Origin: Heterodontus francisci | Taxonomy: Eukaryota | Assembly (NCBI RefSeq): GCF_036365525.1 | Contig: NC_090384.1 | Location: 85,408,413-85,472,412, forward strand | Direction: 5' to 3' | DNA length: 64,000 nt | Shown: in pieces, positions 10,770 to 51,150 of the stretch | How positions within the stretch are numbered: position 1 is the first letter of the stretch | How the letters are laid out: every line of letters starts with the position of its first letter | Notes under the pieces: generated by a model | What the model was told of the DNA's origin: nothing | The model's database searches: none | What the model saw: only the letters and a program-made list of their open reading frames with translations | Program-made: the position numbers and the translations under genes

Positions 10770-11918
10770 GTGAGGTGAGAGTGACTGCCATTGACATCAA
10801 GGCAGCACTTGACCGAGTGTGGCATCAAGGAGCCCTAGCAAAATTGAAGTCAATGGGAATCATGGGGGAAAATTCTCCACTGACTGGAGTCCAATGAGAA
10901 CAAAGGAAGATGGGTGTGAATGTTGGATGCCAAACATCTAAGTCCCAAGACATCGCTGCAGGAGTTCCTCAGGGTAGTGTCCTAGGCCCAACTGGTTTCA
11001 GCAGCTTCATCAATGACCATCCCTCCATCATAAGGTCAGGAATGGAGATGTTCACTGATGATTTCACAGTGTTCAGTACCATTCACGACTACTCAGATAC
11101 TGAAGCAGTCCATGCCCATGTGCAACAAGACCTGGACAACATTCAGGCTTAGGCTGATAAGTGGCAAGTAACATTATGCCACACAAGTGCCAGGCAATGT
11201 CCATCTCCAACAACAGAAAATCTAATCATCTCCCCTTGACATTCAACAGCGTTACCATTGCTGACACCCAGACTATCAACATCCTGGGGTTACCATTGAT
11301 CAGAAACTGAACTGGAGTAGCCATATAAATACTGTGGCTACAAGAGCAGGCCAGAGGCTGGGAATCCTGAGGTGAGTAACTCACCTCCTAACTCCCCAAA
11401 GCCTGTCCACCATCTACAAATCAGGAGTGGGATGGAATATTCCCCACTTGCCTGGATGAGTACAGCTCCAACAAAACTCAAGAAGCTCAACACCATCCAG
11501 GACAAAGCAGCCTGCTTGATTGGCACACCATCAACAACCTTCAACATTCACTCCCTCCATTACCAGTGCACAGTGTCAGTAGTGTGTACTATTTACAAGA
11601 TGCATTGCAGCAACTCTCCAAGCCTCCTTCTACAGCAACTTCCAAACCTGTGACCTCTACCACCTAGAAGGACAAGAGCAGCAGACGCATGGAAACACCA
11701 CCATCTGCAAGTTCCCCTCCAAGGCACACATCATCCTGCCTTGGATCTGTATCACTGCTCTTCCTGCAATGTCACTGGGTCAACAACCTGGAACACGCTT
11801 TCTAACAGATACACTACAGCGGTTCAAGAAGGCGGTTCGCCACCACCTTATCAAGGGCAATTAGGGATGGGCAACAAATACTGGCCTTGCCAGCAATGTT
11901 CACCTCCCATAAAAGAAC
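10770..11918 (+). mobile_element. 3' half (RT plus tail) of the tRNA-headed CR1/L2-group LINE family
   Basis: TAIDIKAALDRVWH, GVPQGSVLGP, MFTDD, MEYSPLAW, IQDKAACLI; tail caagggcaattagggatgggcaa shared with 47205-47800 and 50972-51050. Confidence 0.88.
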
Positions 11919-12419
11919 TTTTAAAAACCTGGTAAAGCATTAATATTTAATTTGGGCTTTGAGTGTTGCATCATTATTTCCCGCAATTCTCATATTCGAA
12001 CCGTAGAGTAACCTGTCAACAGCAGGCAGTTACATCTTACAAAATCTTTTTGGCAGAAGACTGATTTTAAATTTAGAACTATACTACATGATATTCTTTA
12101 ACAAATGGTAGGAGAATTTGGCTACATAGGCCAAGACGGCAGAACTACTGGTAGATCGAAAAACTCACAGAGGATGTGAGGTACTGTTTCTTTTGGGGTT
12201 TATGAGATTAATCTTCTGTTTTTTCTTCAAAAGCTTATTTCCTCTTCTAATTTTGATCTCATCTGGCACAGGGCAGTCGGGGTTTGACAGATGATCTTCA
12301 GTTACTTCAAACCAAACTGAGCTTTCATTACAGTTATCTACACACAAACAAGTTATACTCACAATGGATGCCACTCACTATTAAAACTCATATGCCTGCA
12401 ACTCCCTAACAACGGTCCA

Positions 12420-17175: not shown

Positions 17176-18349
17176 CCAATGGATTACAGTGAGGAAAAAG
17201 GGGCAGATATTCATTATGTTGGGTTACTGCATCACCAGCACTCAAAATGGATGAACAGCAACATCACATTCAGAGCGACGCAGTTAGAACCAGAAAAGGC
17301 ACAAAAATCCATTTTAACGACTTTGGAGTACTGTTCTGAGGACTCCTGTGTCTTTTCCAGATGCTGTGACATCAACAGCCAAACTAACAAGGGGTCCAAG
17401 ATTGCCAAGTAATGATCAGTGCCGGCAAGAACATGAAAAGGACCACAAGAGAAGTATCCTTTTAGTATCCCGAGGTCAATCCCGAGGTTTATCGTGCCTT
17501 TGCTTTTTCTTCCATTTATGACATATAAGTTCGCAGAAGCCTTTATACTAAATTATTATTATTTTTTTCTCCCATGTTGTGGATATAATGGGTTTACCAA
17601 TGATAGTCCCTCAATATGAGGAGCTGGGGAGAAGTGGAGGATCCGCAATGGTACATAGGTCAGGATAGACTAGAGACACTCAGCCCCCACCCTCCCTGGT
17701 TGGTACTTGCACACATGCCTCTGCTTGGTGGGCACCAGAGCTTGATTTAGCAAATGATTAGTTTAAAAGGAGGCTCCAGTTCTTAATTTATGCTCACAGC
17801 ATGCCTGATGACACAGATATGTGTGAAGAGCTGACAAATTGTTGCACTGTATCATAGTTCAGAAGCTCAGTATATCATGCTTTATTTACTAGAGTATGAA
17901 CAAAGCTATGCCAGGATGATCAGCCACAGACCATACCTGCAGGCATCGGTGATGTCACCACCAACAGCTGGGGTGAAGTGTTTTCAGACACTGTGCCAGT
18001 ATCTGTGCCAGGACAGGGATGCCATCTGCCATGTGGACACCTGCTGCTAACATGCACAGCAAGTAACAAAACCAGTCAGCTGCAGCTTGTAGTATACATG
18101 TCTGGTCATTCTTAAATCCCTACCCATTCAGCCTTGGCAAAGGCTGCTATGAGTTGAGATGAATTTTGAACCTTTCTAAAGATTTTCAGAGTATCATGTT
18201 CTTCCATTCTGACACTTCCCTTAAATTCTCCCCTTACCCTTTAAATTTCATTGATGAACAATTTTAAGTTCGGGTTAATAATAGTTGAGGTAAGAATAAG
18301 GGAGCCATATACTGCTCAGATAATCAATAAATGGGGTAGAGGAGCAAAG

Positions 18350-18755
18350 GAATCTAAGGGTACAGATACACAAACCACTAGAAGTAGCAATGCAGGTTAA
18401 TAAAGCCATAAAAAAGCAAGTAAAGCAGTGGAGTTCATTTCTAGAGGAATGAAATTGAAATGCAGAGAAGTTATGTTAAATTTGTATAGAACCTTGGTTA
18501 GACCACATATAGAGCACTGTGCACAGTTCTGCTTTCCATATTGTAAAAAGGATATAGAAGCCCTGGATAAGATGCAAAAATGATTTGTAAGGATGATACC
18601 AGATCTAAGAGGCAATAATTATTAGGATAGGCTAAACAGGATGGATCTGTTTTCCACAGAAAAGAGAAGGCTAAGGGCTGACCTAATAGAGGTCTTTAAA
18701 TTTTGAAGGGTTTTCATAGGATGGATGTAGAGAAGATGGTTCCACTTGTGTGGAG
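18350..18755 (+). mobile_element. CR1 LINE fragment
   Basis: Decayed LYRTLVRPHIEHCAQF and RRLRADLIEVFK. Confidence 0.8.
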
Positions 18756-19735
18756 CATAAACATCGGCAAAATCCGTTGGGACGAATGTTCGGTTTTTGT
18801 GTTGTAAATTCTGTGCAATTCTATGTAACAGTCTGCACCTGGATCTGTGAATAAAGGTGCAGGATTTTGGGTATTGTTTTCACATTATTATTAGTGTCTA
18901 ATAAGTTTTGTTGATGGATGTTAAATACCTAGTAGTTGACGGTAATAGGGTGAACAGGTGTTAGGTATTGATTAGTTAATTGTACTCAGATGTATATACA
19001 AAGAGACAGCCAGCACTGGCTAGAGATTGTTAGCAGTGGAGTAGTGAGTTCTGTGGTAAGCAATGAACAGTCTCCACAAAAGCATCCTAGTCTCAGTGTC
19101 TTCTTCACAAACAGGCTTGGAAGTTTCTCTAACATTTACCACTCCATCAGATGTAACAGGGTTATCCAACCTTTTCACGGGGGGGGGCACATTACAATTT
19201 TTGTCTTACATAGGGGGCTGGTGAGACAGTTTTGCAAAGTTAACGGCATAAATAATTTATCTTGCTTTTCAGCAAAACAACAACAAATGTGCATTTTTGT
19301 GATAAAACTGTAATTGAGAAGATTAATTTATTGACTTAATTTCCCATCACTATGTTAGACGCTGATTTAGTGAGCTACCTGGCATTGTTTTGCTGGTATA
19401 AGTAGTCAATGGCTGGAATTTTACGTGACCCAGCAGGACTGCAGTCTGGGAAGCGGAAATGGGTGCCGAAGGCGCTCCAGCTCGATGCTCAACTGCTGCC
19501 GCGATGGAGTGCTAGCTAACCAATTAGCACCATTTAAAAGGGCTGTCAAAACCTTTAGTGGCTTTGAGAATGCCGCATGCTTCTCAGGGGACGGTGGGAG
19601 GAGCAGGAGCTACATTGCTGACACATATAGCAGGCTAAGGGGAACAGGAGCTGTCCTCTGACTGAAAGGGGTGACCCACCAGACCTTGTCAGAAACCAAC
19701 CTGAGACCTTGGAGGATCAGAACCCACTTGCAGCA

Positions 19736-21512
19736 ATGGCAGAGAGAACCAACTGGGTGACCCCATGGTTTGCAATGACTCCCTACATGTCCTCCACCAG
19801 GCAGCTGAGGCAAGGCGGGAGGTCCTCTTCCCACCAGTCAAAAGGAGAAAGCCTCCCCAGATCACCAGGAAGGCCTGGATGGAGGTTGTGGAGGAGATCA
19901 GCAGCCGCGGGGTTGTGAGGAGGACATGGATGCAGTGCCGCAAGCGGTTCAATGACCTTCTCCACTCTGCCAGGGTGAGTGCCATGTCTCAGTCCTCATT
20001 GCTTTGTACTCATAAGGGTGGGTATCCCGGTGTTGATGCTGCAAAGTGGAAGCCATCCATCTGGAGTGAACGGCTGCAGCCCTGTCATGGGGCATATGCC
20101 AGCACACCTGACCTGCACAAGGGACCAGGAGTGTGCCAACCTTACACTTGAATGGCAATGGTCCCAGGGGCAGAATGTAGCAAGTTGGATGAGCAGGCGA
20201 TGTAACTGAAATGATTATCATGTGTCTCCACAGGATAAGAGGACCCAGAATGCCCATGAGAGGACACGGACCATTGGTGGAGTTCCAATCCTTGCCATTC
20301 TCACTGTTGAGGAGGAGGAAGCATTGCTACTTACTGGTGAGGATGGAGGCTGGTCAGTTGCTGATGGTGAGGCTGGAGCACCTGGCCAGGAGGGTAAGTT
20401 CCCCAATTCCCCAATTGTTCAAACAGTGAAGGTGGTTTGCACATCCAAAACTCACAAACATGTGGCCACGGTGCCATCTAAGACATGTCCTTCAGTCCAG
20501 AGTGTCGCTCAGACATGATCATTCTGTTTTCCACTGCAGGTGAATCACAGCTCCTGCCAGGTTATGTACCCAGGGGACATCCGACCACCTTTGAGGAGGA
20601 GCAGGGGACCTCAGAGGCTGCAGCTATACATCCTTTCCCCACACCAAGCATCAGCTCCGATACAAGTCACCTTGGTTGGGCTCATAGCGCGTTCAGATTC
20701 GTGGTCACAACCTGGTACTAGCAACGCACAAGTACCGGACCAGCTGCCAGAGGCAGTTTTGACCGATGCCTCTGACACTCTGAGGACTGAGGCAGACCAG
20801 GCCAGGGCGGAGCCCCATGTTATTGAGCCTCTGAGCTCATCCATTCAGTGGCAGATGTTGCAGGTGCAGCATGAGGTGCGTGGAGATCTGGCAGAGTCAC
20901 CAGAGACTATGCATGCTCTGGCTCGGACGATGGAGGCATCCTTCCAGGCCATGAGTTCTGCACAGTTCTGGTCATCTGAGTGACTGGCTTCCTCAGTTGA
21001 CAGATTGGTGACTGCAGTGGAGAGCCAGTTCCAGCAGGCCACCCAGTGCCTGCCGGAGATGTGCACAGACTTGTAGACCATTGCAGTGTCAGTGAGCTCC
21101 ATGTATCATGACAATGCGAGAGAGGGACGAGGCACCTAGGGTTTCCTCCAGGTGGTCAACCCTCTCAGTCAGCAGGGAGGCCCAAATGAATCTTGTGATG
21201 GCACAGGAGCAACAGCAATCTGCATTGTGGGGCTTTTCTCAGGGCGATTCTGATGCGAACAGCGGCTCCTTGTCCTCTCTGCCAGTGACAATAGCACTTC
21301 AGAATGCCAGGATGACAGAGGGTGGTCCTGAGACTGTTCAGGGTCACTTCAACATGCCAAGGCCCTCACGGCCTCGGGCAGCCAGAGAACGCTCACCAAG
21401 GTCATCCCAAGACATAGGGCAGCCTGATCAGCTACCAGTCTCTGCCGTAGCTGGTGGCGAAGGGGCATTGACACTTGTGAACACTCGGAAACGATTTAAA
21501 AAATCACAGTAA
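19736..21512 (+). pseudogene. Harbinger Myb/SANT-like DNA-binding gene (exons 19736-19974, 20234-20393, 20540-~21512), frameshifted
   Basis: RREVLFP...RKAWMEVVEEISSRGVVRRTWMQCRKRFNDL trihelix motif; AGG|gtgagt, cacag|GAT, GAGG|gtaagt, ctgcag|GTG splice sites; frameshift near 19770 and stops in exon 3. Confidence 0.85.
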
Positions 21513-21829
21513 CTGCACTTAGGTTTCACTGGTGTAATTTTGATTCATGTTAATTTTTGTGCAATTTTCCACAAACTTTATTAAAGTGCACCTTTGGCTT
21601 ATTTATGTCTCAAGTAACTGATGATGTATGAGGCGAACCTTTTCTTCTGCATGAGATGGAGATTTGGGGAGGTTCACCAGTGGGTCATGGTGTGTTAGAG
21701 GGAAAGGTGGACCATAGCAGCTGAGATTAGTGCCTGCAGGTGAGTGCTTTTGGGGTTCCAACAGATGTGAATGTCTGAATTCAGATTGACATGTCAGTTG
21801 CTGGCAGAGTGCATGGCTCATTAACCTCA

Positions 21830-23100
21830 GGTCAGGAGAAACGCCTAAGTATTAGAGCCTCCCTTGCATGCAAACCTCCAACTGCTTCTCCTGGATGTTC
21901 AGGTGGCTGCGCCCCCTCCTCCTCCTCCTCAAACCCTTCACCCTCCTCGTCTGAGGACACCTTGTGCTGAACAATTTCCTCAGCACCAGGGCCTCCCCAA
22001 TCTGCAGTGCCAGGTTATGTAAGGCGCAGTAGACAACCACAATAAGAGATACCCTTGCTGGCGAATACTGAAGAGCACCACCTGAGCAATCCAGGCACTT
22101 AAATCTCATCTTCAGAAGAACTATGGTCTTCTCAATGGTGACTCTGGTGGTCACATGGCTCACATTGTACTGTTCCTCTGCTTCATTCTGTAGGTTCCTC
22201 ACAGGTGTCATCAGCCATCTCTTCAGCAGGTAACCGCTGTTGCCAAGTATCCATCCTTGCAGGCACTCAGGGGGGCTGAAAAGTGCTGGCACCTGGGAGT
22301 TCCAGAGAATGAATGTGGCATGACTGCTTCCTGGATTACGAGCACACACCTGCAATATACTCTTACGGTGGTCACAGACTAGTTGCACATTCATCGAGTG
22401 AAATCCCTTTCAATTAATGAAGGCTCCTGGCTGACCTGCAGGAGCTCTAATGGCCAAATGTGGACAGTCAATCATGCCTTGGACCATGGGGAACCCAGCG
22501 ATGGCGCTGAAGCCGCTGGCTCTCTCGGCCTGACTATCATAGTCAGTCTTGAACTTGATGTACTGGTTGGCCCACCTGAACATGGCATCAGTTACCACCC
22601 TTATGCAGTGCTGTGCAGATGATTGTGAGATTCCACACATGTCTCCTGTGGAAGCCTGGAATGAGCCTGATGCATAGAAGTTCTGAGTGACTATGACCTT
22701 TCCAGCCATTGGCATTGGATGGCCACCCACACAGCGGTCCTCCGCTACCATCATCTCACACAGAGATGTCACAGTCTCTTGGGACAGGTGCAGTCTTCTA
22801 AGGCACTGACGCTCTGACATCTGCAGGAAGCTCAACCGCTGCCGTTACACCCCGCCTACTGGGTAAACACATCTCAGCACAGGTCTTTGCTGCTGGTGAA
22901 CTCTCTGGCCTTCTGCCCCTCCCCCATAACAGGGCTGCAGTTGGCCAGCAGGTCGCTGATTTCCTTGGCCACTTGGCCCCTGTCTCCTTGTGCCGTTCTC
23001 CTCCTCGCTAGAGGACTCTCCTCCAGAGTGGACAATGCCCACGGTTGCAGCGTCCCGAAGATGTGTTGGGGACAGGTTGTGTGCTGCCTGCTGCAAGGAC
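21830..23100 (-). pseudogene. Harbinger (HARBI1-like, DDE_Tnp_4) transposase, inactivated
   Basis: FYASGSFQ, GFPMVQGMIDCPH, NVQLVCD, WILGNSGY (second catalytic D replaced by N), RVTIEKTIVLLKMRFKCL, CALHN; split by a stop codon and frameshifts. Confidence 0.92.
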
Positions 23101-23676
23101 AGCCACTTGCAACCCCCCTCTCCTACCTGGGATAAATCACTTATGCTGTGGCCCTACCAGGGGTATTACTCACTCAGGTAAGCCCTTGGGAGCCAACAAT
23201 ATCAGCCCCTATCTTGGAATTTACTGATAAATACAACACACAAAACAGAAGATTCAAGTACCTCCAACTCCTTCAATGAGACAGCTGCTCATTTAAAGCT
23301 GTCGGGTCTGCAACCGCACCCCCCCCCCGCCCCTACCGTGTTACCCATGCGCAGAACATAAAATGGAATGGGCAACGTAAAATGGCTGTCAATTGGCTTT
23401 TTAATCACTTCAGTTAGCTGTCAACCGCCTTAAATCGGACAGCGAGCAGAATCCCCATCTCGCCTGACGTCTGACGAGCGTTAAATGGCAATTTGACGTC
23501 ATGACATCGGGGACCCATCCTGTTGTCATCGCCCACCATTTTTCGCTGCAGCCACCTCCGAGGACGCCTCTACTTTGGAAAGTAGAATTCCGGCCAATGT
23601 TTCCCCGCACACTTCTTGTAGCGATGCAGAGTATTCCGGATCGATGTCCATCTGTCAGGAGTGATCTTGATCATTC

Positions 23677-23762
23677 TCTTTCCCTCTCTCTCTCTCTCTC
23701 TCTGTCTCTCACTCTCTCTCTCTGTTCCCCCCTCTCTCTGCCCCTCCTCTCTCTGTCTGCCT
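23677..23762. repeat. CT-rich microsatellite inside the hAT element
   Basis: (ct)n run; equivalent tract at 35932-36107 in the second copy. Confidence 0.9.
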
Positions 23763-24331
23763 CCCCAAACCCTCTGACAGTTGTGGTTGGTCAGTGTGAC
23801 AAGTGCTGATATCAGGAACAGCGGTTTCCCAACTTCGGACAGATTCGGGGTTTTCAAGCCGGCTTTTAAAAAAAAAAGTCAGAACCCGTTGGAAAACCCT
23901 GAATCTGTCCGAAGTTGGGAAACTGCTGTTCCTGATGTCACCACCTGTCAACTGTGAAATTGACAGTGCGATTTAAAAAAAAAACAGTCTGAGAGAAGAA
24001 GACAATGAAAAATTTCTCATCTCTGAAATATATCCGCAGGCTGGATGGAAACATTTGGTGGGCCAGATTCTGGCCCACAGGCCATATGTTGGACAATCCT
24101 GAGATATCAGTTTTTAACACGACTTGCACCAGAGGAGGTACTACTGTTAGGATAAATGCTTGGCTCCACACAGTTTAAATCAGACATATATTATAACATG
24201 TATTAATCCATGCAGGTTTTGTATTTACACTATAGATGTGTGGAATGCTTTCCATAATTGCATAATATGCATAATATGCATGGTACAGAGAAAAAGAAAA
24301 ACACTAACAAATGAGGTTAAAACCAAACATT

Positions 24332-25107
24332 GGGCTGGATTTTAAGAGCCTGCCGCTGATCTTGACGGCGAGCTCAAAAAATGACAGCCCACGCCAAAGA
24401 GGCAGCCCACCCCTCCCAATCTCATGGAGGGAGCAGGCTGTCCATGCCCGGCAATGGTGCCAGCTGCCTGTGCACAGACGCTGGCGCCCTTTTTAAAGGG
24501 CAGCCAGCCATGCGGCCCAATTTAAATTTTTAAAGTCCTACCCCTCAAAATTAAATAAATAAATTTCTAATGCTTATTTCCCAACCCCCCAATAACAATT
24601 ACAATAACTATTTTCCATCCCCCCAAACACACTTACCTTTTACATCTGACCTTCCCCCCCCACCCCACAAACTGCGCAAAGTTTAAGGTTCAACCCTTCC
24701 CACCATCTCCTACACCCATTCCGTATATTTGACACAGTCCCCCCACACCCAGCCCCGATAAACCTACCTCCTCCCCCCTCCCCACCTGTGTGATGCCTCG
24801 TTTGCCCAGACGGGGATCTGAAGGCGTGGGAGTGCCACCCGCCACGCCAAAGACCGTGGCGGGCCCTCAAAATCGCAGGTAAGTTTATTTAAATTTATTA
24901 ATTTTATTGATTTGAATATTTAACTTGTGGTCCCATCGCCCAGCGGCAGGGTGGAAGGGACTACCACGGAGCCTCGCCACTGCTGGGAGGATCAGGCCGG
25001 GCCCTCCAGGCGTCGAGGTCCGTGGCAGGCCTCATCCGGAGCCATCTTCAGGCACCGCCCCCCCCCGCCACAGAATCTGATGCCTGAGGGAGAACAAAAT
25101 CCAGCCC
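24332..25107. mobile_element. Harbinger-type MITE
   Basis: Perfect 12-bp TIR GGGCTGGATTTT / AAAATCCAGCCC; TSD ATT/ATT; internally similar to 37734-38515. Confidence 0.9.
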
Positions 25108-25162
25108 ATTATGCAGAGTTTAATTTCATACAGACTTTGCAGCCTTTGTAAAAAAGGCCTGG

Positions 25163-25300
25163 AGAACATAAAAAAAGGAGTAGGCCATTCAAGCCCTCGA
25201 GCCTATTCAGCCATTCAATTAGATCATGGCTGATCGGGATCTTAGCCTTCTCTTCTTACTTCAGTTCCTCTAACCCTTAATGCCCTTGCCTAACAAAGCC
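25163..25300 (-). mobile_element. CR1 3' end fragment
   Basis: ggagtaggccattc...cagccattcaattagatcatggctgatc resembles the CR1 tail at 51165-51260. Confidence 0.7.
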
Positions 25301-25482
25301 TATGCTTTTGGAAATAAATCTTATTGAAAATAACTCAATGCTACACTTCTTTTTAGCTTCTTTTTACTTTGAACTCAATAGAAAAATATTCTTTTTTTTT
25401 GATATGCAAGTGGAAATTTTCAGCATAATTTCAAAACTTCAGCACAAACTAAAAGTTATGTTATGCAACAGAAATCTGTTAC

Positions 25483-25579
25483 CTTGGCGTATACACAGCT
25501 TTCATTCAAAATCCAGTAAGAACAATTACGCTCACACATTGGGCACATGCGGGTGTCATTGGCTTCACAGATCTCCCTG
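25483..25579 (-). CDS. ANO3: Anoctamin-3 coding exon (Cys-rich extracellular loop 1), 97 nt, phase 2-0
   Basis: ttttccag|CAGGGAG...GCCAAG|gtaaca; (S)[32 protein letters not shown]; anoctamin MCPxC motif. Confidence 0.96.
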
Positions 25580-26874: not shown

Positions 26875-28964
26875 CTGATTTCAACAAAGTCAGAGTTTAG
26901 GAATAAGGCAGTGTTGGTAGGATGGCATATTTGAAAGAAATGTGAGAGGAGCATTCAGAGGAGAGTGCTTATAGTGATGTATTTGAATAGAATAGAACAT
27001 TATATTGTCAAAGAAGAATGTGTTCTGTCAAATCAATGAAATTATATTCGGATAAAAATTCCACTGCTGTGGGTCAGCAACACAGGTCTTTGCCAAACGG
27101 AATGCAGGAGCAGAGATCATGTATGATACATGCTGTGAATGCTCAGCCTGGGATTTCTAATGCAAGTAGTGCCTGTGATGCAATATGCAACCATTGTTCC
27201 AGCGTGTGCGCCTCATTACATGTCGGAATTTTACATGCTCGGCGGCAAAGCTACTCAGCCCTGCATTTTGCACCAATTCAGACCTATAAGGTAACATCAT
27301 TGGTATGTACCTGCAAAAACGCACCTTTTCAGTTCAGCTCTTTTGTCCATGTTTGAACCAAGGCTGTGATGAGGTCAGGAGCTGAGTGGCCCTGGTAGAA
27401 TCCAAACTGAGTGTCACTGAGCAGGTTTTTGCTAAGCAAGTGCTGCTTGATAGCACTGTCAATGACACCTTCCATCACCTTATTGATGATTGAGAGTAGA
27501 CTGATGGGGTGGTAATTGATCGGGTTGGATTTGTCCTGCTTTTTGTGCACAGGACATACCTGGGCAATTTTTCACATTGCCGGGTAGATGTGAGTGTTGT
27601 AGCTGTACTGGAACAGCATGGCTAGGGGCACGGCAAGTTCTGGAGCACAGGTTTTCAGTACTATTGCCAGAATGTTGTCAGGGCCCGTAGCTTTTGCCGT
27701 TTCCAGTACCTTCAGTCATTTCTTGATATCACGCAGAGTGAATCAAATTGGCTAAAGACTGGCATCTGTGATGATAGGGACTTCAGGAGGAGGCCGAGAT
27801 GAAACATCCACTCGGCACTTCTGGCTGAAGATTGTTGCAAATGCTTCAGCCTTATCTTTCGCACTAATGTGCTGGGCTCCCCCATCATTGAGGATGGAGA
27901 TATTTGTGGAGCTCCCTCCTCCTGTTAGTTGTTTAATTGTCCACCACCATTCACGACTAGATGTGGCAGGACTGCAGAGCTTAGATCTGATCCGTTGGTT
28001 GTGGGATCCATTGGTTGTGGGATCGCTTAGCTGTCTCTCACATGCTTCTTACGCTGTTTGGCATGCAAGTTGTCCTGGGCTGTAGCTTCACCAGGTTGAC
28101 ACCTCATTTTGAGGTATGCCTGGTGCTGCTCCTGGCATACCCTCCTGCACTCTTCATTGAACCAGGATTGATCCCCCGGCTTGATGGTAATGGTAGAGTG
28201 GGGGATATGCCAGGCCATGAGGTTACAGATTGTAGTTGAGTACAATCCTACTTCTGCTGATGGTCCACAGCACCTCATGGACGCCCAGTTTTGCATTGCT
28301 AAATCTGTTCGAAATCTATCCCATTTAGCAAGGTGGTAGTGCCACACAACACGATGGAGGGTATTCTCAATGTGAAGACGGGACTTCGTCTCCACAAGGA
28401 TTGTGCAGTGGTCACTCCTACAAATACTGTCATGGACAGATGCATCTGTGCCAGGCAGATTGGTGAGGACCAGCTCAAGTATGTTTTTCTTGTTGGTTCC
28501 CTCACCACCTGCTGCAGTCCCAGTCTAGCAGCTATGTCATAGAGTCATGGATTCATAGAGTCATAGAGTCGTACAGCATAGAAACAGGCCTTTCAGCCCA
28601 CCGCGTCCATGCCGACCATAATGCATTAATTCCATATCCCTCCATGCCTTGTTCATTCAAGTACCTGTCCAGATGCCTCTTAAATATTGATACTGTTCCT
28701 GCCTCCACCACCTCCTCAGGCAGCTCATTCCAGATACCCACTATTCTTTGTGTGAAAAATTTAACCCTTTGATCCCCTTTAAACCTCCTCCCTCTCAACT
28801 TAAATCTATGCCCTCTAGTTTTACTCACCCCTAACATGGGAAACAGATTCTGGCTAACTACCCTATCTATGCCTCTCATAATTTATATACCTCTATCATG
28901 TCCCCTCTCAGCCTCCTTCGCTCCAGGGAAAACAGACCCAGCCTATTCAATCTCTCTTTATAAC

Positions 28965-31526
28965 TCAAGCCCTCCAAACCAGGCAACATCCTGTGAATCT
29001 TTTCTGCACCCTCTCTAGCTTAATCGCATCTTTCCTGTAGTGCGGCGACCAGAACTGCACACAGTACTCCAAATGTAGCCTCACCAACGTTATGTACAAC
29101 TGTAACATGACGTCCCAACTCTTGTACTCAATGCCTCGGCCGATGAAGGCAAGCATGCCATGCGCCTTCTTCACCACCCTGTCTACCTGTGTTGCCACTT
29201 TCAGGGAACTATGTACTTGCACCCCAAGGTCTCGCTTCTCAACAACACTCCCCAGGGCACTGCCATTAACTGTATATGTCCTGCCCTGGTTTAACTTCCC
29301 AAAATGCATCACTTCGCACTTGTCTGCATTAAATTCCATTTGCCAATCCCTTGCACACTTTCCCAGTTTATCTATATCCTGTTGTAACCTTAGACAACCT
29401 TCTTCACTGTGCACTATACCACCAATTTTGGTGTCATCTGCAAACTTAGTAATCATACCCCCTACATTCACATCCAAGACATTAATATATATGACTAACA
29501 ACAGAGGGCCCAGCACCGATCCCTGTGGCACACCACTGGTCACCGGCCTCCAATCTGAAAAACAACCCTCCACTACCACCCTCTGCCTTCTATCACCAAG
29601 CCAATTTTGTATCCAATTGGCTAGCTCATCCTGGATCCCATGTGTTCGAACCTTCTGGATCAGCCTACCATGCGGGACCTTGTCAAAGGCCTTGCTAAAG
29701 TCCATGTAGACAACATCCATCGCCCTGCCCTCGTCAATCCTCTTGGTCACCTCCTTGAAAAACTCAATCAAATTCGTGAGACATGATTTCCCACGCACAA
29801 AGCCATGCTGACTATCCCTAATCAGACCATGCCTTTCCAAATGCATGTAAATCCTGTCTCTCAGAATCCCTTCCAATAACTTTCCCACCACTGAGGTAAG
29901 GCTCACCGGCCTATAGTTCCCTAGCTTATCCCTGCTGCCCTTCTTAAATAAAGGCACAACATTAGCTATCCTCCAGTCTTCCGGGACCTCACCCGTGGCT
30001 AACGATGATACAAAAATCTCTGCCAGGGCCCCAGAAATCTCCTCCCTTGCTTCCCATAGCATCCTAGGATACACCAGGTCAGGCCCTGGGGATTTATCCA
30101 CCTTAATGCGCTTAAAAACCTCCAACACCTCCTCCTTTGTAATGTTGATATGCTTCAGGATATCGCTGTACCCTCCCTTGAACTCACTAGCTTCCATGAC
30201 CTTCTCCATAGTAAATACAGACGTGAGGTATTCATTTAAGACCTTGCCCATTTCCCGTGGCTCCACACATAGATTGCCACACTGATCCTTAAGGGGACCT
30301 ACTCTCTCCCTAGCTACCCTTTTACTTTTAATATACATATAGAATCTTTTAGGATTCTCCTTTATCTTATCTGCCCGGGAAATCTCATGACCCCTTTTTG
30401 CCCTCCTAATTTCTTTCTCAAGTGTAGTCCTACATCCCCTATACTCCTCGAGGGACTCGCTTGATCCCAGCTGCCTATACCTGACATATGCCTCCTTCTT
30501 TGGCCTGACCAGACCCTCAATATCCCTCGTCCAAGCTTCCCTAAACTTGCCAGCCTTGCCCTTCCATCTAACAGGAACATGCCGGCCCTGAACTCTTCCT
30601 ATCTCACTTTTAAAAGCCTCCCACTTGCCAGACGTCCCTTTACCTGTAAATAGTCTCTCCCATTCAACTTTTGAGAGTTCCTGTCTGAAGCCATCAAAAT
30701 TAGCCTTCCCCCAATTTAGGACTTCAACCTGAGGACCAGTGCTGTCCTTTTCCATAACTATCTTGAATCTAATAAGAGTTATGATCATTGGTCCCAAAGT
30801 GCTCCCCTCTGACACATCAACCACCTGCCCAGCCTCATTTCCTAAGAGGAGGTCGAGTGTAGCCCCTTCTCTAGTAGTGCCATCCACATACTGCTTCAGA
30901 AAACTATCCTGGACACACTTAACAACTTCTTCCCCATCTGATCCCTTAACACTCAGGCAGTCCCAGTCAATATTAGGGAAGTTAAAATCACCTATTGTTA
31001 CAACCTTATAATTCCTACACCTATCTGTGATTTCCCTACATATATGCTCCTCCAATTCCCTCTGACTATTGGGGGGCCTATAGTATAATCCCATCAAAGT
31101 GATCACCCCTTTCTTATTTCTAAGTTCTACCCATATGGCCTCGCTGGACATTCCCCCTGGGATATCCTCTCTAAGTGCTGCTGTGATGTCCTCCCTAATC
31201 AATAGTGCAACTCCCCCTCCTCTCTTACCTCCACCTCTGTCATGCCAGAAGCATCGGTACACCGGAACATTGAGCTGCCAGTCCTGCCCATCCCTCAACC
31301 ACGTTTCCGTAATAGCTATAATATCACAATCCCATGTACCGATCCATGCTCTGAGTTCATCTGCCTTACCTGTAAGACTTCTTGCATTAAAGTAAATGCA
31401 ATTTAGCCTACCAGACCTCCCCGTCCCGCTCCTGCCCGACCTGCCTACTGGACTTGCTTTAACCTCTACATTTGCCTCAACTATCTCATCTGAGAGACTA
31501 CTACTTTGGGTCCCACCTCCCTGCAA
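28965..31526 (-). CDS. CR1 ORF2 (APE endonuclease plus reverse transcriptase), 853-codon open stretch; C-terminus frameshifted into 28553-28879
   Basis: YFNARSL, IAITETW, YYRPP, GDFNFP, KSPGPD, NYRPVSLTS, QHGF, DFSKAFDKV, GVPQGSVLGP, KFADD. Confidence 0.9.
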   Translation of the reverse strand: MQGGGTQSSSLSDEIVEANVEVKASPVGRSGRSGTGRSGRLNCIYFNARSLTGKADELRAWIGTWDCDIIAITETWLRDGQDWQLNVPVYRCFWHDRGGGKRGGGVALLIREDITAALREDIPGGMSSEAIWVELRNKKGVITLMGLYYRPPNSQRELEEHICREITDRCRNYKVVTIGDFNFPNIDWDCLSVKGSDGEEVVKCVQDSFLKQYVDGTTREGATLDLLLGNEAGQVVDVSEGSTLGPMIITLIRFKIVMEKDSTGPQVEVLNWGKANFDGFRQELSKVEWERLFTGKGTSGKWEAFKSEIGRVQGRHVPVRWKGKAGKFREAWTRDIEGLVRPKKEAYVRYRQLGSSESLEEYRGCRTTLEKEIRRAKRGHEISRADKIKENPKRFYMYIKSKRVARERVGPLKDQCGNLCVEPREMGKVLNEYLTSVFTMEKVMEASEFKGGYSDILKHINITKEEVLEVFKRIKVDKSPGPDLVYPRMLWEAREEISGALAEIFVSSLATGEVPEDWRIANVVPLFKKGSRDKLGNYRPVSLTSVVGKLLEGILRDRIYMHLERHGLIRDSQHGFVRGKSCLTNLIEFFKEVTKRIDEGRAMDVVYMDFSKAFDKVPHGRLIQKVRTHGIQDELANWIQNWLGDRRQRVVVEGCFSDWRPVTSGVPQGSVLGPLLLVIYINVLDVNVGGMITKFADDTKIGGIVHSEEGCLRLQQDIDKLGKCARDWQMEFNADKCEVMHFGKLNQGRTYTVNGSALGSVVEKRDLGVQVHSSLKVATQVDRVVKKAHGMLAFIGRGIEYKSWDVMLQLYITLVRLHLEYCVQFWSPHYRKDAIKLERVQKRFTGCCLVWRA

Positions 31527-31528
31527 GA

Positions 31529-31781
31529 CTAGTTTAAACCCTCCCGAGTAGTACTAGCAGATCTCCCCGTAAGGATATTGGTCCCCTTCCAGTTCAGATG
31601 CAGCCCATCCTTCTTGTACAGGTCACCTCTGCACCAGAAGAGATCCCAATGATCCAAGTAGCTGAAGCCCTCCTGCCTACACCAGCTCTTCAGCCATGCA
31701 TTCATTTGCCTTATCCTCCTATTCCTACCCTCACTAGCACATGGCACAGGGAGTAATCCTGAGATTACAACCCTAGAGGTC
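31529..31781 (-). CDS. CR1 ORF1 C-terminus (SGNH/GDSL esterase-like)
   Basis: TSRVVISGLLPVP...MNAWLKSWCRQEGFSYLDHW...LYKKDGLHLNWKG with block V DxxH. Confidence 0.88.
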
Positions 31782-32602
31782 TGCGGTAGGTGGTAATCAG
31801 CAGGAGGTTTCCTTGTCCGTGTCCTTTAGGATTCGGCCAGCTCGGTCAGGAGTGGTGCTACTGAGCCATTCTTGGTGATGGACATTGAAGTCCCCTGCCC
31901 AGTGTACATTCTGCACCCTTGCTACCCTCAGTGCTTCTTCCAAGTGCCGTTCAACATGGAGAAATACTGATTCATCAGCTGAGGGGAGGCGGTAGATGGT
32001 AATCAGCAGGAGGCTTCTTTGCCCATGTTTGACCTGATGTCATGAGACTTCATGGGGTCTGGAGTCGATGTTGAGGACTCCCAGGGAAACTCCCTCCCAA
32101 CTGTATACCACTGTGCCACCACCTCTGCTGGGTCTGTCCAGTCTTTAGGACATTGTCTGTAAAGTATAATTCAGTGAGTATGACTATGTCAGGCTGTTGC
32201 TTAACTAGTCTGTGGGACAGCTTTCCCTTTTGGCACAAGCCCCCAGATGTTAGTCAGGAGGACTTTGCAGGGTCGACAGGGCTGGGTTTGCCATTGCCAT
32301 TTCTGGTGCCTAGGTCAATGCCGGGTGGCCTGTCGGTTTCATTCCTTATTGACTTTTTAGAGGTTAGATACAACTGAGTGGCTTGCTAGGCCATTTCAGA
32401 GGGCATTTTAAGAGTTAACCACATTGCTGTGGGTTTGTAGTTACATGTCAGCCAGACCAGATAAGGGCAGCAGATTTCCTTCCCTAAAGGGCACTAGTGA
32501 ACCAGATGGGCTTTTGCGACAATTGACAATGGCTTCATGGCCATCATTAGACTAGCTTTTTAATTCCAGATTTTTTATTAATTGAATTCAAATTCCACCT
32601 TC

Positions 32603-32692
32603 TGCCATGGTGGGATTTGAACCCATGTCCCCAGAGCAATACCCTGGGTCTCTGGGTTACTAGTCCAGTGACAGTACCACTACGCCATCACC
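32603..32692 (-). promoter_or_regulatory. tRNA-derived RNA polymerase III type-2 promoter (A and B boxes) at the LINE 5' end
   Basis: Minus strand GGTGATGGCGTAGTGGT (A box) ... GGGTTCAAATCCC (B box and T arm); anticodon-like arm CTGGA-CTAGTAA-CCCAG; long variable arm CCCAGGG-TATTG-CTCTGGG. Confidence 0.8.
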
Positions 32693-33232
32693 TGCCAAGG
32701 GACAGCATGTCGATGAGAAATAGGAAGGGGCCAAAGATAGATCCTTGAGGCTTATCAGCAGTACTGATGTGGCAGCAGGAAGTGAAACCATTGCAGGTGA
32801 TTCTCTGGCTACGACTGGATAGATAAGAATGGAACCAGGCGAGTGCAATCCCACCCAGCTGGATGACAGTGGAGATGCACTGGAGGAGAATGGTGTGGTC
32901 AACCAAGTCAAAGGCTGCAAACAGGTTGAGAAAAACGAGGAGGGATAGTTTACCATTGTCACAGTCATTTGTGATTGTGATGAGAGCTGTTTGGTACCGT
33001 GGCAGGGACGGAAAACCTGGTTGGAGGGTTTCTGGGAAAGATGGCCATGGATTTGGGAGATAGCAGCAGATTCAACGACTTAGGAGAGGAAAGGAAGGTT
33101 GAAAACAGGGTGATAGTTTGCAAACATCCAGCGATTAAGGGGTTTTTTTGAGGAGAGGGGCGATGACAGCAGCAGAAATGGAGACAGTACTTGAGGAGAG
33201 AGACAATTAACAATATCTGCTAACATGTGAGA
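32693..33232 (-). mobile_element. L2 LINE RT fragment
   Basis: MVDHTILL...ALAWFHSYLSSRSQ...PQGSIFGPFLF. Confidence 0.85.
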
Positions 33233-40650: not shown

Positions 40651-41569
40651 TATGTAATGCATGTCTATGTAAGGGAACAATTTCCATTTCAGTGCAATAC
40701 CAATATATCAAAATACTAATCTAACTCCTGGATTATACTGCCACTTTACCTCTAAACCACTTTACATCAATGTCAAAGAGACAGTATGACTGCAGCCTAA
40801 ATATATAGGTATTAGTAAGAGTATATTCACCATCAATTCAAGTAATTGGGGCTAGTATTTCCACAAGGTGAAACCATAACACTTCTCTTCAGTGTCAGGG
40901 TCTTTTACCAGAACCTACTTATCTAGCTTTAACTGAGTCTTGATCTGGCAGAAATATGCCAGGGCTGTAATTTTGATGATCTATGCTTTGTTAAGGGAGA
41001 TTCATGAAGGGCTGGGAGGAGTAGGAGGAATGAACAATCTCAATCATTTAGCTGTGAGTTTTCATTAAGGAAGGATGCTAAATTAGAACAAAGATCATTC
41101 AACAACTGCCATCTCAATCACTGCCCAATCACCAATCATTGAATGCACACATATAAAATGCTAAAGAAATGGAGTTCTGCAAATTTAAAGTGATATTGCT
41201 GATAAGAAAATTAGATTCTGCTGTCATTTTGATGGACAGTTCTTAAATTGTCCAACAGAAAGCATTTAATCCTTTCACACTCAGTAAAAAAAAATACAGT
41301 CCATATCCATTTTATTATAATAAAAACAAGAAATGCTGGAAATACTCAGCAGGTCTGGCAGCATCTGTGGAGACAGATGCAGAGGTAACATTTCAGGTCA
41401 GTGACCCTTCTTCAGAACTGGCAAATATTAGAAACGTGAAAGGTTATAAGCAAGTAAAGCAGGGGTGGGGCAAGAGATAACAAAGAAGGTGTAGATCGGA
41501 TAAGGTCACAGAATAGCTGACCAGAAGGTCATGGAACAAAGGCAAACAATATGTTAATATTGTTAATAT

Positions 41570-41904
41570 TTCAGGTGAAGCAGCGATTTACTTGTACTTC
41601 TTTCAATGTAGTATACTGTATTGGCTGCTCACAGTGTGGTCTCCTCTACATTGGGGAGACCAAGCGCAGACTGGGTGACCGCTTTGCGGAACATATCCGC
41701 TCAGTCCGCAAGCAGGACCCTGAGCTTCCGGTTGCTTGCCATTTCAACACTCCCCCCTGCTCGCATGCTCACATCTCTGTCCTGGGATTGCTGCAGTGTT
41801 CCATTGAACATCAACGCAAGCTCGAGGATCAGCATCTCATCTACCGATTAGGCACACTACAGCCTGCCGGACTGAACATTGAGTTCAATAATTTCAGAGC
41901 ATGA
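41570..41904 (+). CDS. Penelope-like GIY-YIG endonuclease domain (C-terminal fragment)
   Basis: FTCTSFNVVYCIGCSQCGLLYIGETKRRLGDRFAEH...VACHFN...RKLE...LGTLQPAGLN; GIY-YIG residues Y, Y, R, H, E, N retained; 5'-truncated. Confidence 0.9.
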
Positions 41905-42262
41905 CAGCCCCCCATTTTACTTTCATTTTCAGTTATTTTTTTCTTCCTTTTTTTTTACATTCTTTTTTACATTTTTTACAATCCTTTTTTTTTGCATTTA
42001 GTTCATTTCATCTTAGTTTGTTCAGTTTGCTTACCCACTGTTTTTTTTCAGGTTTGCACTTGCTGCTGTTCAATATTCAGTCCATTAACACCTTTTCTGT
42101 ACTAATGCTTTGTCTTTCAACACACCATTAACATATTGTTTGCCTTTGCTCCGTGACCTTTTGGTCAGCTATGTGGCCTGGTCCAATCTAGTCCTCCTTT
42201 GTTATCTCTTGCCCCACCCCCACCTCACTTGCTTATAACCTGTGACTTTTCTAATATTTGTC

Positions 42263-42299
42263 AGTTCCGATGAAGGTTCACTGACCTGAAACGTTAACT
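42263..42299 (+). ncRNA. Minimal type I hammerhead ribozyme motif in the Penelope pLTR (one core substitution)
   Basis: AGTT-CCGATGA-AGGT(tcactg)ACCT-GAA-ACGT-T-AACT; sibling copies at 44753-44789 (CTGATGA), 41383-41419 (minus, CTGAAGA) and 40252-40294. Confidence 0.7.
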
Positions 42300-43270
42300 C
42301 TGCTTCTCTTTCCACAGATGCTGCCAGACCTGCTGAGTGGTTCCAGCATTTCTTGTTTTTATTTCAGATTTCCAGCATCCGCAGTATTTTGCTTTTATAA
42401 TATGTAAATGGTGTGTTGAAAGGCAAAGTATTAGTACAGGTAGGGTGCAAACGGACTGAAAATTGAACAGCCGCAAGTACAAACATGAAAAAAAAGTGGG
42501 TAAGCAAACTGAACAAACTAAGGTGAAATAAAATAAAATAAACACAAAAAAAATATTAAAAAAGAAAAAGAAAAAATAACTAAAAATAAAAGTAAAATGG
42601 ACGGGCCTGTCATGCTCTGAAATTATTGAACTCAATGTTCAGTCTGGCAGGCATCCGGTGTTGCATCTCATTTACCGATTAGACACACTACAGCCTGCCG
42701 GACTGAACATGCTGATTAATTTGGTCTGGGGGTGTGGCCAATTTTGTGGGTGGGCCTGTTTTCCAACACAATGTTTTTTAACTAGCGTAAAATATGACAG
42801 AAACTCAGCTTGCACTGGACATAACTTAGGCTCAAGATTCCTTGATCTTTTGCTTTGGTTTGGCCGATTTGGGCAAATTGTGCTGAAAAAATCTGTGTAA
42901 CCTTGCAGAAACTGTATCCCACTATGTTTAAATTGAGATGTTTGCAAACACTCCACCTGGTTTACACAGCAACTGCATTTTCATGCTACAAAGTTTGCTT
43001 GAATTCCAACAGATTCTGAGGACCTCTCTACCCAAAACTGTTCAGAGGGAGACAAACCAAGGTTCTCCTGTTATTCTGGATTGCCAAATGTCGAAGAATT
43101 CAGCTCCTCCTCTAGTTGTATGCTTGTTGGAAACATTCAACATTTTAGACTTTTGCTTTGTTTTAAATCTATAATATTAACCTTAATTTAGCAGGCATCT
43201 TTTAGAAGGCCAAAAAAGTGTAACAATTAGCAGTGTCATTCATTGGAAATACACTACTGGAGCAATCTTT

Positions 43271-47204: not shown

Positions 47205-47800
47205 CCTATCCAGAGGCTCGGAATGCTGCGGCGAGTTAACTCACCTCCTGACTTCCAAAGCCTGTCCACTAACTACAAGACACAAGTCAGGGGTGTGATG
47301 GAATATTCTTCACTTGCCTGGATGGGTGCAGCTCCAACAACACTCAAGAAGTTCGACACCATCCAGGACAAAGAAGCCCGCTTGATCGGACCCCCATCCA
47401 CAAACATTCACTCCTTCCACCACCAATGCATGGTGGCAGCAGTGTGTACCATCTACAAGATGCACTGCAGCAATGCACCAAGTCTCCTTCAACAGCACCT
47501 TCCAAACCCGCGACCCCTACTACCTAGAAGGACAAGGGCAGCAGATACATGGGAACACCGCCACCTGCAAGTTCTGCTCCAAGCCACACACCATCCTGAC
47601 TTGGAACTATACCGCCGTTCCTTCACTGTCGCTGGGTCAAAATCCTGGAACTCCCTTCCTTACAGCACTGTGGGAAGTACCTACCTGACATGAACTGCAG
47701 CAGTTCAAGAAGGCAGCTCACCACCACCTTCTCAAGGGCAATTAGGAATGGGCAATAAATGCTGGCCTAGCCAATGAAGCCCATATCCTATGAATAAATA
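47205..47800 (+). mobile_element. 3' fragment of the tRNA-headed LINE family, nested in CR1
   Basis: MEYSSLAW...IQDKEARLIG...YKMHC...SWNSLP; colinear with 11350-11918. Confidence 0.88.
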
Positions 47801-49879
47801 TTTAAAAAAGTACCTCCTCCTTGCCAATTTTAAAACCTTCAAGTGTTTGGATAACTTCTGCTCTTTCACCATGACCTGCACAGCATTTTCTTCCTTGACA
47901 GATGCAAAGTATTCATTTTTTACCTCAGCCATGACCCCACCTCCATGCATAGGTCCCCTTTTTGGTTCCTAATTGGCCCCACTCCTTCTTTTACTACCCT
48001 TTTACTATTTATCTGCCCAGAGAAAACTTTTAGATTCCCTTTTATATTAGCTGCCAGTCTCTTTTCATACTCTCTCTTTGCTTCTCTTATTTGCTTTTTC
48101 ACTTCCCCTCTGAACCTTCTATGTTCAGCCTATTTCTCAGCCGTATTATCCACCTGACATCCATCATTTTTTCTTCCTCATCTTAATCTCTATCTGTTTC
48201 ATCATACAGGGAGCTCAGGATTTGTTTGCCCTACCTTTCTCCGTTGTGGGAATATATCTTGACTGTGCCCAAACTAACTCTTCTTTAAAGTTACCATTTT
48301 GCCTGTCAAGCTTTGACTCCAATTTATCTGGGTCAGATCCATTCTTACCCGATTGAAGTTGACTTTTCCAATTTAATTATTCTTACTCTGGATTGTTCCT
48401 TGTTCTTTTCCATAGCCAACCTAAACCTTATGATACAATGATCACTGACTGGAAACATACAAGCTATAGATCTGAGGCATATTAATATCTGTAGCAGGGA
48501 GAATTCAAAGAAGGGACATAATTCTGAGGTTTCTGAAGGATACTATTTACTCATAAAGGTACAACAAATTATAGTGTTTGGCTTCAAAGCTTGATTGCCA
48601 AGGGCCAGCAAAGACTTAAAGTCTCACTTCACAGTGGAGAAAATTAAATTGGCTCAGGAACGTGGAGGCGAGGAGATTAAGATCACTGCAGTGTTTTGGT
48701 CGTATGCTAACTCTTGTCATGTAATATACTTACTCCCAGCTACAGGTTACTTCTTGAGCGCCTGCTGATTAACATGGACATCAAATATTACAGCTAGTGG
48801 TACTCAGAGATTTGAACAAACTTACATTCACAAAACAATTCATGTCCTCTCCCTCCTTCCCTCTCTTGACACTTCCCCAACTTCGGCCTCTAGTCTTGCA
48901 GATCATTTAACATAGATGGCACTGACTGGTGAAATGTAGCAGCATAAACTGCTGAATTTATTAAAAGGGTTTGGCACCTCTGAATTAAAACAGACTTGAA
49001 GGGGATACATTCAGAATTTGTTCAACTAATTCTCAAGGGGCCTAATTAGCGCAGGCTCTTATTTATGTTTTCGAGTTGATGTTGTCACAATACATCACCA
49101 TGTCAAATAAAATGCTACTGTGAGCAGGTTTAGATCCAAGGGGGAAAAAAGGCTCGCCTGCCTTAATCTGGAGTTGGAACTCAGTTCAGTCTACCCAGTA
49201 ATAAATGGAGGTCAGGGAATTATTGAGGTTTACACAGATGTACTTTTCAGAAAATTAAATTGCAAAAACATAATGACAGAATACACCTTTCAGCAAAATG
49301 GCTTCTGCATTTTGATTAAACTTATTAGTGTGTGACGCTATGTATCGCCGCTTGACCAGATAAACTCAGGAACGCAGACATTGCTTAAATGTATAGCAGA
49401 GATTTCCTCTCAGAACTGATTCTTAATGATACTCAATTTAAAGACATGAATATTTTGCTGTGCTGCTTGAACTTAACATTTTAATTAGAGATCAATGAAC
49501 TGAAGAGTCATCGCACAACATCACTGCTAGCCCATATGTTGAGTTTTAACAAATCAAAATCAAAATCCTCGCAGGAGTAAGTTCAGTGAGTGGTTTTGGT
49601 GCAGAAACTCATTTACACCTAGTTTTAGGCAGTGATGCAGCTCCAACATGTGCCCAAACTGGAAGGTCCGAGGCCAGCCTGAATTTGGCCTTCTATTTAA
49701 ACTGGGAAAAAAGACACCACAGGCAGCTTGGCCATTTCAGTCAGATGAATTTCAGGCCATTGCCTTGCCCTGGTAAGCTGTTAGTTCTTCGCTGGATTTG
49801 AAAATATGTAATTTCTGTGCTACTTGTCAATTGCCTTATCCTTCAGGGTGAATAGCAAAGGGAAGAATCCTTATGCTTG

Positions 49880-50971: not shown

Positions 50972-51150
50972 TTTTTTTAAATTATTCATTCACAGGGTGT
51001 GAGTGTCACTGGCAAAGCCAGCATTTCTTGCCCATCCCTAATTGCTCTTGAAAAGTTGGTGATAAGCCACATTCTTGAATACAACTGAATGGCTTGCTAT
51101 GCCATTTCCGAGGGCAGTTAAGAGTCAACCACATTGCTATGGGTCTGGAC
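50972..51150 (-). mobile_element. Bipartite SINE-like deletion derivative of the tRNA-headed LINE (5'-truncated)
   Basis: 51079-51148 matches the LINE leader at 32368-32438 and is fused to the LINE 3' tail (50985-51075 matches the reverse complement of 47705-47797). Confidence 0.8.

Follow-up and report, generated by a model that had tools for sequence, protein, structure and literature searches.

Zenon long interspersed nuclear elements (LINEs) have been described from sharks, rays, the coelacanth, and hagfish by Stuart et al. 2026 (PMC13343379); all of them lack a first open reading frame (ORF1) and possess poly(A) tails. In a systematic comparison of LINEs with short interspersed nuclear elements (SINEs), LINEs are taken to be transcripts of RNA polymerase II (Pol II), and RTE and Vingi are the only LINEs whose 5' parts were found in SINEs (PMC5786205). 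Concerning T+ SINEs, RNA polymerase III (Pol III) stops inside a T run, the RNA is then polyadenylated, and the minimal terminators are TVTTT and T4 (PMC8466645; this and the other publications are cited from their accessible parts). Here, we describe an element situated on the minus strand of a 64,000-nucleotide (nt) stretch of Heterodontus francisci (assembly GCF_036365525.1, contig NC_090384.1, positions 85,408,413 to 85,472,412; in the following, the window), which by its sequence is a member of the published elasmobranch Zenon family of the CR1 group (PMC13343379). The element is family-wide, conserved across sharks and rays, and has the layout of a T+ SINE that encloses an ORF. It is probably an autonomous single-ORF LINE that, to judge from its sequence features, would be transcribed by Pol III as one RNA of about 3.3 kb from a fixed head derived from tRNA-Thr. 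An earlier note on the window had proposed a LINE with a tRNA-derived promoter and a coding sequence purged of Pol III terminators; its observation is confirmed, and its interpretation is partly supported.

The unit consists, in this order, of the tRNA-Thr(AGT)-derived head, a leader of about 230 nt, a single ORF for an apurinic/apyrimidinic endonuclease (APE) and a reverse transcriptase (RT), an AATAAA signal, a run of 0-8 T, and an A tail. Searches of the own genome (6.0 Gb) gave 17,569-25,502 first-look candidates per query, 40 of which were scored in each case. Copies were picked with a query from the middle of the RT (39 non-self matches) and inspected upstream afterwards, which avoids selection by the head. 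The head was reached in 25 of these 39 copies (in two of the 25 only its 3' part), and each of the remaining 14 has a start of its own between element positions 72 and 1086, i.e., with ordinary 5' truncation; the upstream flanks of the latter have nothing in common except two short matches to one flank. None of the 39 copies carries ORF1 or an alternative 5' module, and apart from the main ORF no AUG frame within the first 480 nt exceeds 46 codons. The contiguity of head, leader, and APE, which had been read from the window copy, is thus found there and in most long copies, and the claimed absence of ORF1 is a property of all copies picked; it says nothing about Pol III, however, because it is a general trait of Zenon. 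An exact pattern across the leader-to-ORF junction has 4,779 matches genome-wide.

A column consensus built from 35 near-full-length copies (91-97% identity to the consensus) is about 3.3 kb long, contains one frame of 975 codons, and is free of T4. The Pfam domains Exo_endo_phos_2, Exo_endo_phos, and RVT_1 are all situated on the natural 805-aa frame of copy L082. Variants shared among copies comprise 102 synonymous and 71 non-synonymous changes, private variants 462 and 1548, respectively; this difference in ratio shows that purifying selection acted on the ORF in the source lineages, the sources needing their protein. The window copy is broken, and not one of the 35 copies is intact. A consistent target-site duplication, for which a check had been suggested, is not found among the 35 copies; in copies L035, L033, L077, and L056, the own first 4-6 bases are repeated just upstream of the start. 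A search for older divergent subfamilies with a copy of 74-79% identity gave mostly the main family. In public RNA data, element sequence is present in contigs of 24 runs, which as assembled contigs give neither strand nor start nor cap; the four runs examined exhibit a 3'-biased contig profile with a bump over the leader, which says nothing on the polymerase.

Concerning the head, neither ARAGORN nor Rfam calls it as a tRNA. Two true tRNA-Thr(AGT) genes were located in the own genome by a spacing-based pattern (L230, L232), and the head of copy L068 is identical to tRNA-Thr(AGT) at 52 of 74 positions, including 15 consecutive ones through the B box, and has a 20-nt insert in the variable region, such that the tRNA-like character asserted before stands by alignment and not by these two predictors. 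The A box is situated at element nt 12-22 and the B box at nt 76-86; copies have their 5' end some 10 nt ahead of the A box, within a short G-rich stretch in which the number of G varies. The first 400 nt or so of seven published consensus sequences from five elasmobranch species (2.9-3.3 kb in length) match head, leader, and ORF start by eye, the leader being nearly identical in the five species and both boxes being recognizable in shark and ray despite a changed spacer between them; in the roughly 400 nt visible, none of the seven contains TTTT (PMC13343379).

The sense strand of the Zenon element contains only 20% T. In the four segments of the window that had been scanned by eye before, no sense-strand run of four or more T (T4+) exists, as claimed, whereas the antisense strand has 6, 10, 5, and 1; the nested CR1 LINE, for which about ten had been counted, possesses 11 on its sense strand. 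Natural Zenon copies (30 of the 35, the five 5'-truncated ones being left out) contain 10 T4+ runs in 96,492 nt (0.10 per kb), compared with 145 in 45,727 nt of CR1, 62 in 21,275 nt of RTE, and 57 in 15,248 nt of L2 copies (2.9-3.7 per kb). Within the ORF, runs of at least three T (TTT+) number 4 against 12.8 expected, with 0 of 1000 codon shuffles as low; codon shuffles further predict 10.7 windows with four T among five positions, of which one is found (P = 0.001), and 4.1 sites with T4 or TVTTT, of which there are none (P = 0.007). T-ending codons make up 5 of the 125 codons before a T-starting codon but 199 of 849 elsewhere (p = 2.6e-8); the respective values are 34/157 and 229/829 in the CR1 and 18/97 and 115/585 in the RTE control. 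Runs of A, C, and G are not depleted in the Zenon ORF, and neither TTT+ nor T4 is depleted in the ORFs of the CR1 and RTE controls; the RTE control, although equal in T fraction (0.20), carries five T4 and 20 TTT runs in 2.1 kb. New T alleles that create TTT account for 3 of 89 if shared by at least five copies, compared with 75 of 722 private ones (p = 0.018). The robust signal is thus a strong avoidance of TTT and of T-T codon junctions, which is specific to the strand and to T and resides at synonymous sites. Phe content (1.7% versus 2.3-4.1% in 15 close homologues) is suggestive only.

As a further comparison, 80 metagenome relatives with DNA context were available, 69 of which were left after 11 with ORFs below 300 aa had been dropped. 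None of the 69 has zero T4, but they form a weak control because they are distant and mostly richer in T; loose patterns of A plus B box are present in four of them (L187, L189, L190, and L202). The nearest metagenome locus (L147) has no tRNA head and 20 T4 in its ORF. The ORF of one distant metagenome LINE (L219:345-2111, on a contig without the 5' end) contains one T4 run where codon shuffles predict 14.3, with normal TTT numbers.

The transition from leader to ORF is marked by the sequence AUG-GCC-UAG-CAA, in which an AUG in purine-flanked context, in frame with the ORF and directly before it, is followed by an in-frame UAG stop (element nt 306-308); after this stop, no in-frame ATG occurs until codon 285, behind the endonuclease. 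Eight AUGs precede the in-frame one at nt 300. Exact matches genome-wide number 7,286 for the UAG form and 734 (about 9%) for a GAG form that opens the frame, and the GAG copies have no other diagnostic site in common; UAG is found by eye in all five species with published consensus sequences. The stretch between the leader end and the following AUG, which is out of frame, preserves the frame in 95 of 100 matches listed (by eye); it measures 58 nt in 82, 55 nt in 13, 59 nt in four, and 56 nt in one of the 100, and its commonest variants are synonymous in the ORF frame. Our best guess for the start of translation is readthrough or reinitiation at the UAG. A -1 frameshift from the conserved out-of-frame ATG may be an alternative route; some copies have a stop in that short frame, and no canonical slippery site was seen.

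AATAAA occurs at element nt 120 and 344, the two of the leader, and at 3245. Among 62 LINE-type 3' ends, the signal is present in 51, and an A run of at least four follows the conserved end in 57. The T run before the A tail mostly comprises one or two T; 12 of the 62 LINE-type and six of 25 SINE-type ends have T4+ no more than 25 nt from the end.

These SINE-type ends belong to deletion derivatives. A pattern leading from the leader end directly to the tail has 4,551 matches, with several different junctions among the matches listed; the commonest derivative, often with 92-96% identity, consists of element nt 1 to about 322 plus the last 75 nt or so (about 400 nt in total), and SINE-type joints are also found in contigs of three of the four public runs. 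As leader end and tail of the LINE are joined directly and at several junctions, the derivatives are ORF deletions of the Zenon LINE, and since the parent already possesses the head, deletion yields a full tRNA-headed SINE. The SINE2 description as short, non-coding, and non-autonomous fits the derivative of about 400 nt only, not the 3.3-kb LINE. An identity of the derivative with SacSINE1 or another DeuSINE was rejected, because its leader is by eye unlike the printed Deu alignment (PMC5499810), via which alone SacSINE1 was compared, and because the Deu motif sits in a different element (L040); the leader also matches neither UCON3 nor a Meta domain by eye. The stretch L040:4330-4660 is a separate tRNA-like SINE with the Deu motif and probably represents the true SacSINE1-type element of this genome.

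Transcription by Pol III is the best explanation for these features because a single cause would cover the fixed promoter head, the position at which copies start, the layout of the 3' end, and a synonymous avoidance that is specific to one strand and to T. Pol III would be brought by TFIIIC and TFIIIB to a site about 10 nt upstream of the A box, and selection would remove internal terminators (T4, TVTTT), such that the polymerase could transcribe the element to its 3' end. Termination would take place in the terminal T run or in the following one downstream, and the transcript would be polyadenylated via AAUAAA like the RNAs of T+ SINEs. The weakest step is translation, for which the uncapped RNA would depend on internal entry of ribosomes on the conserved leader, with entry most likely at the AUG of AUG-GCC-UAG and subsequent readthrough of UAG-CAA or reinitiation. 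Finally, the APE-RT protein would use target-primed reverse transcription to integrate its own RNA as well as the SINE-like derivatives. Taken in its entirety, i.e., as a protein-coding SINE of sharks and rays with a Pol III mRNA of about 3.3 kb from a tRNA-Thr promoter, synonymously purged of terminators, polyadenylated as in T+ SINEs, translated cap-free via the leader and a leaky in-frame UAG, and giving rise to SINEs by one-step internal deletion, the proposal has in our estimation an even chance of being correct.

Several observations weigh against Pol III transcription or some part of it. No precedent is known to us for a translated Pol III RNA of 3.3 kb. The translation start is least secure, since the AUG-GCC-UAG frame is one base off the ORF by eye in two of the five published species consensus sequences and the leader does not fold better than its shuffles (z = +0.41), such that an internal ribosome entry site has no structural support here. 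Among dead copies, A and B boxes are kept no better than their surroundings (0.92-0.93 versus 0.93-0.96). Regarding the T runs, zero TTTT alone, on which the earlier note had relied, is marginal: synonymous-codon shuffles expect about two (P = 0.06-0.09), and P amounts to 0.027 under a codon-position and 0.01 under a base-composition null, but to 0.17 and 0.54 under Markov nulls of order 1 (1.8 expected) and order 2 (0.6 expected), which already include the TT deficit; the purge stands in the avoidance of TTT and T-T junctions and in the T4-free consensus. A mild deficit of TT runs exists in CR1 (P = 0.018) and RTE (P = 0.006) as well, and the allele test loses significance if sharing by at least eight copies is required (1/26 versus 75/722, p = 0.24). 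The choice between TTT and TTC for Phe (4:14), which had been suggested as a check, is not special, since other two-fold amino acids also prefer C (Tyr, 3:15). Longer terminal T runs accompany shorter A tails and may thus be post-insertion A-to-T changes; in old B2 copies, terminal T runs lengthen in this way as tails age (PMC8466645), so that the 3' layout fits a terminator but does not prove it.

Among the alternatives, a SINE-derived 5' region that serves as internal Pol II promoter and 5' untranslated region, LINEs being able to swap their 5' ends, is unlikely but the most serious; T runs would then be avoided for another cause, e.g., as U-rich cleavage/polyadenylation or decay signals behind the two AATAAA of the leader. 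This would agree with the general view of LINE transcription cited above and with the AATAAA at nt 120 and 344 besides that at 3245, a capped RNA would be easier to translate, and the variable number of G at the 5' end could reflect a reverse-transcribed cap, as in L1. However, CR1, RTE, and L2 of the same genome, presumably Pol II transcripts, retain 2.9-3.7 T4 per kb, C runs are not depleted, so that pyrimidine tracts as such are not avoided, and the start site fits the geometry of a tRNA gene. Furthermore, the boxes persist by eye in sharks and ray despite the changed spacer (PMC13343379), and a ribosome scanning from a cap would have to pass eight AUGs to reach the one that is in frame. 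The hardest step, i.e., translation without a cap, would be removed if the Pol III RNA were only the template of retrotransposition, hence the T purge, and the protein came mainly in trans from a minority of capped or Pol II read-through transcripts. The copies with GAG (734 versus 7286), in which the ORF is an ordinary AUG-started one, and the SINE-like derivatives, which show that the protein works in trans, would suit such a mixed mode; we nevertheless regard it as improbable, as the purifying selection that the ORF experienced in the amplifying lineages is most easily explained by source copies using their own protein, UAG is the majority allele and present in all five published species (PMC13343379), and the GAG copies do not form a group by any other diagnostic site.

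The chance that the head is merely a SINE inserted beside an ordinary LINE, or a one-off chimera, and that TTTT is absent simply because T is scarce, is close to nil. One-off tRNA/L1 chimeras do exist, in humans rarely and mostly with antisense half-tRNAs (PMC13174262), and with 20% T and an order-2 Markov expectation of 0.6 the missing T4 runs would not surprise; but the RTE control of equal T content does carry such runs, and the head reached in RT-picked copies, its presence in five species (PMC13343379), and the 4,779 exact leader-to-ORF junctions refute this possibility. Pol III transcription remains the preferred explanation, and what had been named in advance as speaking against it at the sequence level is not observed: most long copies carry the head, none has an ORF1, and the column consensus lacks T4.

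The positions of the family's pieces in the window are listed in the table below. The window copy starts at about 32696 and not, as noted before, at 32692, with A and B boxes as described there, and continues without interruption from the head through the leader into APE motif I (AAA codon at 32266). The 5' part of its ORF is frameshifted, with the out-of-frame ATG at 32342-32340, the CR1 was inserted at about element nt 918, and since the copy ends at nt 2121, its tail and the greater part of the RT are missing. Its host site is the RT region of an older L2-type LINE (32693-33140, minus strand). At the 5' junction of the CR1 insertion lies a 40-nt copy of upstream target sequence, as expected from a template jump. 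The pieces at 10770-11927 and 27322-28538 complement each other exactly as two halves of the element; they lie on opposite strands with 16.5 kb between them, which resembles an inversion. Such an inversion is unsupported, given that the pieces diverge by 12.5% and 7.2%, respectively, and that their flanks are non-adjacent in seven related loci; for the same reasons, the complementarity may be coincidence.

Table. Zenon-related and control features in the window (element coordinates refer to the full-length unit).
Feature	Position	Strand	Remarks
tRNA-Thr(AGT)-derived head	32603..32696	-	A box 32687-32677, B box 32623-32613; 20-nt insert in variable-arm region; 52/74 identity to tRNA-Thr genes
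Leader	32395..32602	-	several short upstream AUG frames; common to SINE-like derivative
AUG-GCC-UAG	32386..32394	-	directly 5' of long ORF and in frame with it
ORF 5' part	31820..32385	-	basic N-terminal stretch and APE endonuclease, motif I at 32266
40-nt duplicate at CR1 junction	31783..31822	-	element nt 710-749
Nested, unrelated CR1 LINE	28539..31781	-	ordinary T-run content (control)
ORF middle	27322..28538	-	APE end, linker, first part of RT (element nt 915-2121); copy cut here
Second piece of family	10770..11927	+	RT 3' part and tail (element nt 2119-3296)
5'-truncated copy	47211..47809	+	ORF end, AATAAA, T3, A tail (element nt 2703-3297)
5'-truncated SINE-like deletion derivative	50972..51149	-	element nt 256-325 joined to 3195-3298
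RTE-type LINE fragment	2482-3477	-	used as control

Apart from these features, the window contains a frame at 21852-22844 (minus strand) that we take to resemble a Harbinger/PIF transposase and, on the opposite strand at 19705-21512 (plus strand), one that presumably resembles its Myb/SANT-like partner. A fragment at 41319-42600 with nested inverted repeats is presumably Penelope-like with a GIY-YIG domain; short tails of it also occur at 1390-1522, 40313, and 44752.

Regarding relationships, the Zenon RT groups with unnamed ENA/JGI proteins and with insect and crustacean proteins (about 40-47% identity) and is separate from shark CR1 (support 90) and from RTE in a quick tree of 77 rows, none of them a named Zenon reference. 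A single-protein metagenome scan and a viral scan gave no match. Close annotated proteins exist in Rhincodon, Heptranchias, and Heterodontus (76-86%). One Heptranchias gene model named aldo-keto reductase (P0001) contains a stretch 86% identical to the Zenon APE region and is probably a mis-joined annotation. A literature search outside Repbase, Dfam, and subscription journals revealed neither a Pol III-transcribed autonomous LINE nor a tRNA head on Zenon, and the accessible main text of PMC13343379 does not mention tRNA, promoter, Pol III, or polymerase. The family is known and the missing ORF1 is a trait of the clade; the novelty thus lies in the head and the T purge.

If Pol III transcription holds, the divide between coding Pol II LINEs and non-coding Pol III SINEs would be broken by a successful family with thousands of copies in this genome and a presence in both sharks and rays. 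The element would provide a natural long Pol III mRNA, with which the use of an uncapped Pol III transcript by vertebrate ribosomes and the shaping of codon use by terminator avoidance become directly testable. Deletion of the ORF from a headed LINE would constitute a one-step route to a new SINE, and translation entry is a candidate job for a conserved SINE body.

The R2 element is comparable to Zenon as a single-ORF non-LTR element with an uncapped RNA not made by Pol II and an unconventional start of translation; unlike Zenon, it is co-transcribed by Pol I from ribosomal DNA, released by a ribozyme, and site-specific, with a restriction-like endonuclease (RLE). With the T+ SINEs B2, Dip, and Ves, Zenon shares the tRNA head with A and B boxes and a 3' end of AATAAA, variable T run, and A tail, whereas those SINEs are short and non-coding and Zenon carries 975 codons under purifying selection between head and tail (PMC8466645). 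The derivative is, like the DeuSINEs SacSINE1 and LmeSINE1, a tRNA-headed SINE of similar size in a shark, but SacSINE1 combines a Deu body with a tail of L2 type (PMC5499810). Internal deletion with retention of both ends is also described for bipartite non-autonomous LINEs (PMC5786205) and for the Persaeus SIDEs of lepidopteran Zenon, which likewise arose more than once; in contrast to the derivative, Persaeus possesses neither tRNA homology nor a Pol III promoter (PMC6740152). Invertebrate, hagfish, and coelacanth Zenon (CR1-Zenon) equally possess a single ORF and a poly(A) tail; in the visible 5' parts of the hagfish and coelacanth consensus sequences, no head is seen by eye and T4+ runs are present (PMC13343379). 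Most similar are CarCar_Zenon, HypSab_Zenon, RhiTyp_Zenon, ScyCan_Zenon, and SquAca_Zenon, of about 3.3 kb with a single APE-RT ORF, no ORF1, and a poly(A) tail, from which the element of H. francisci does not differ in structure; its head, T-run purge, T+ SINE-like end, and AUG-GCC-UAG go unremarked in the accessible part of their description (PMC13343379).

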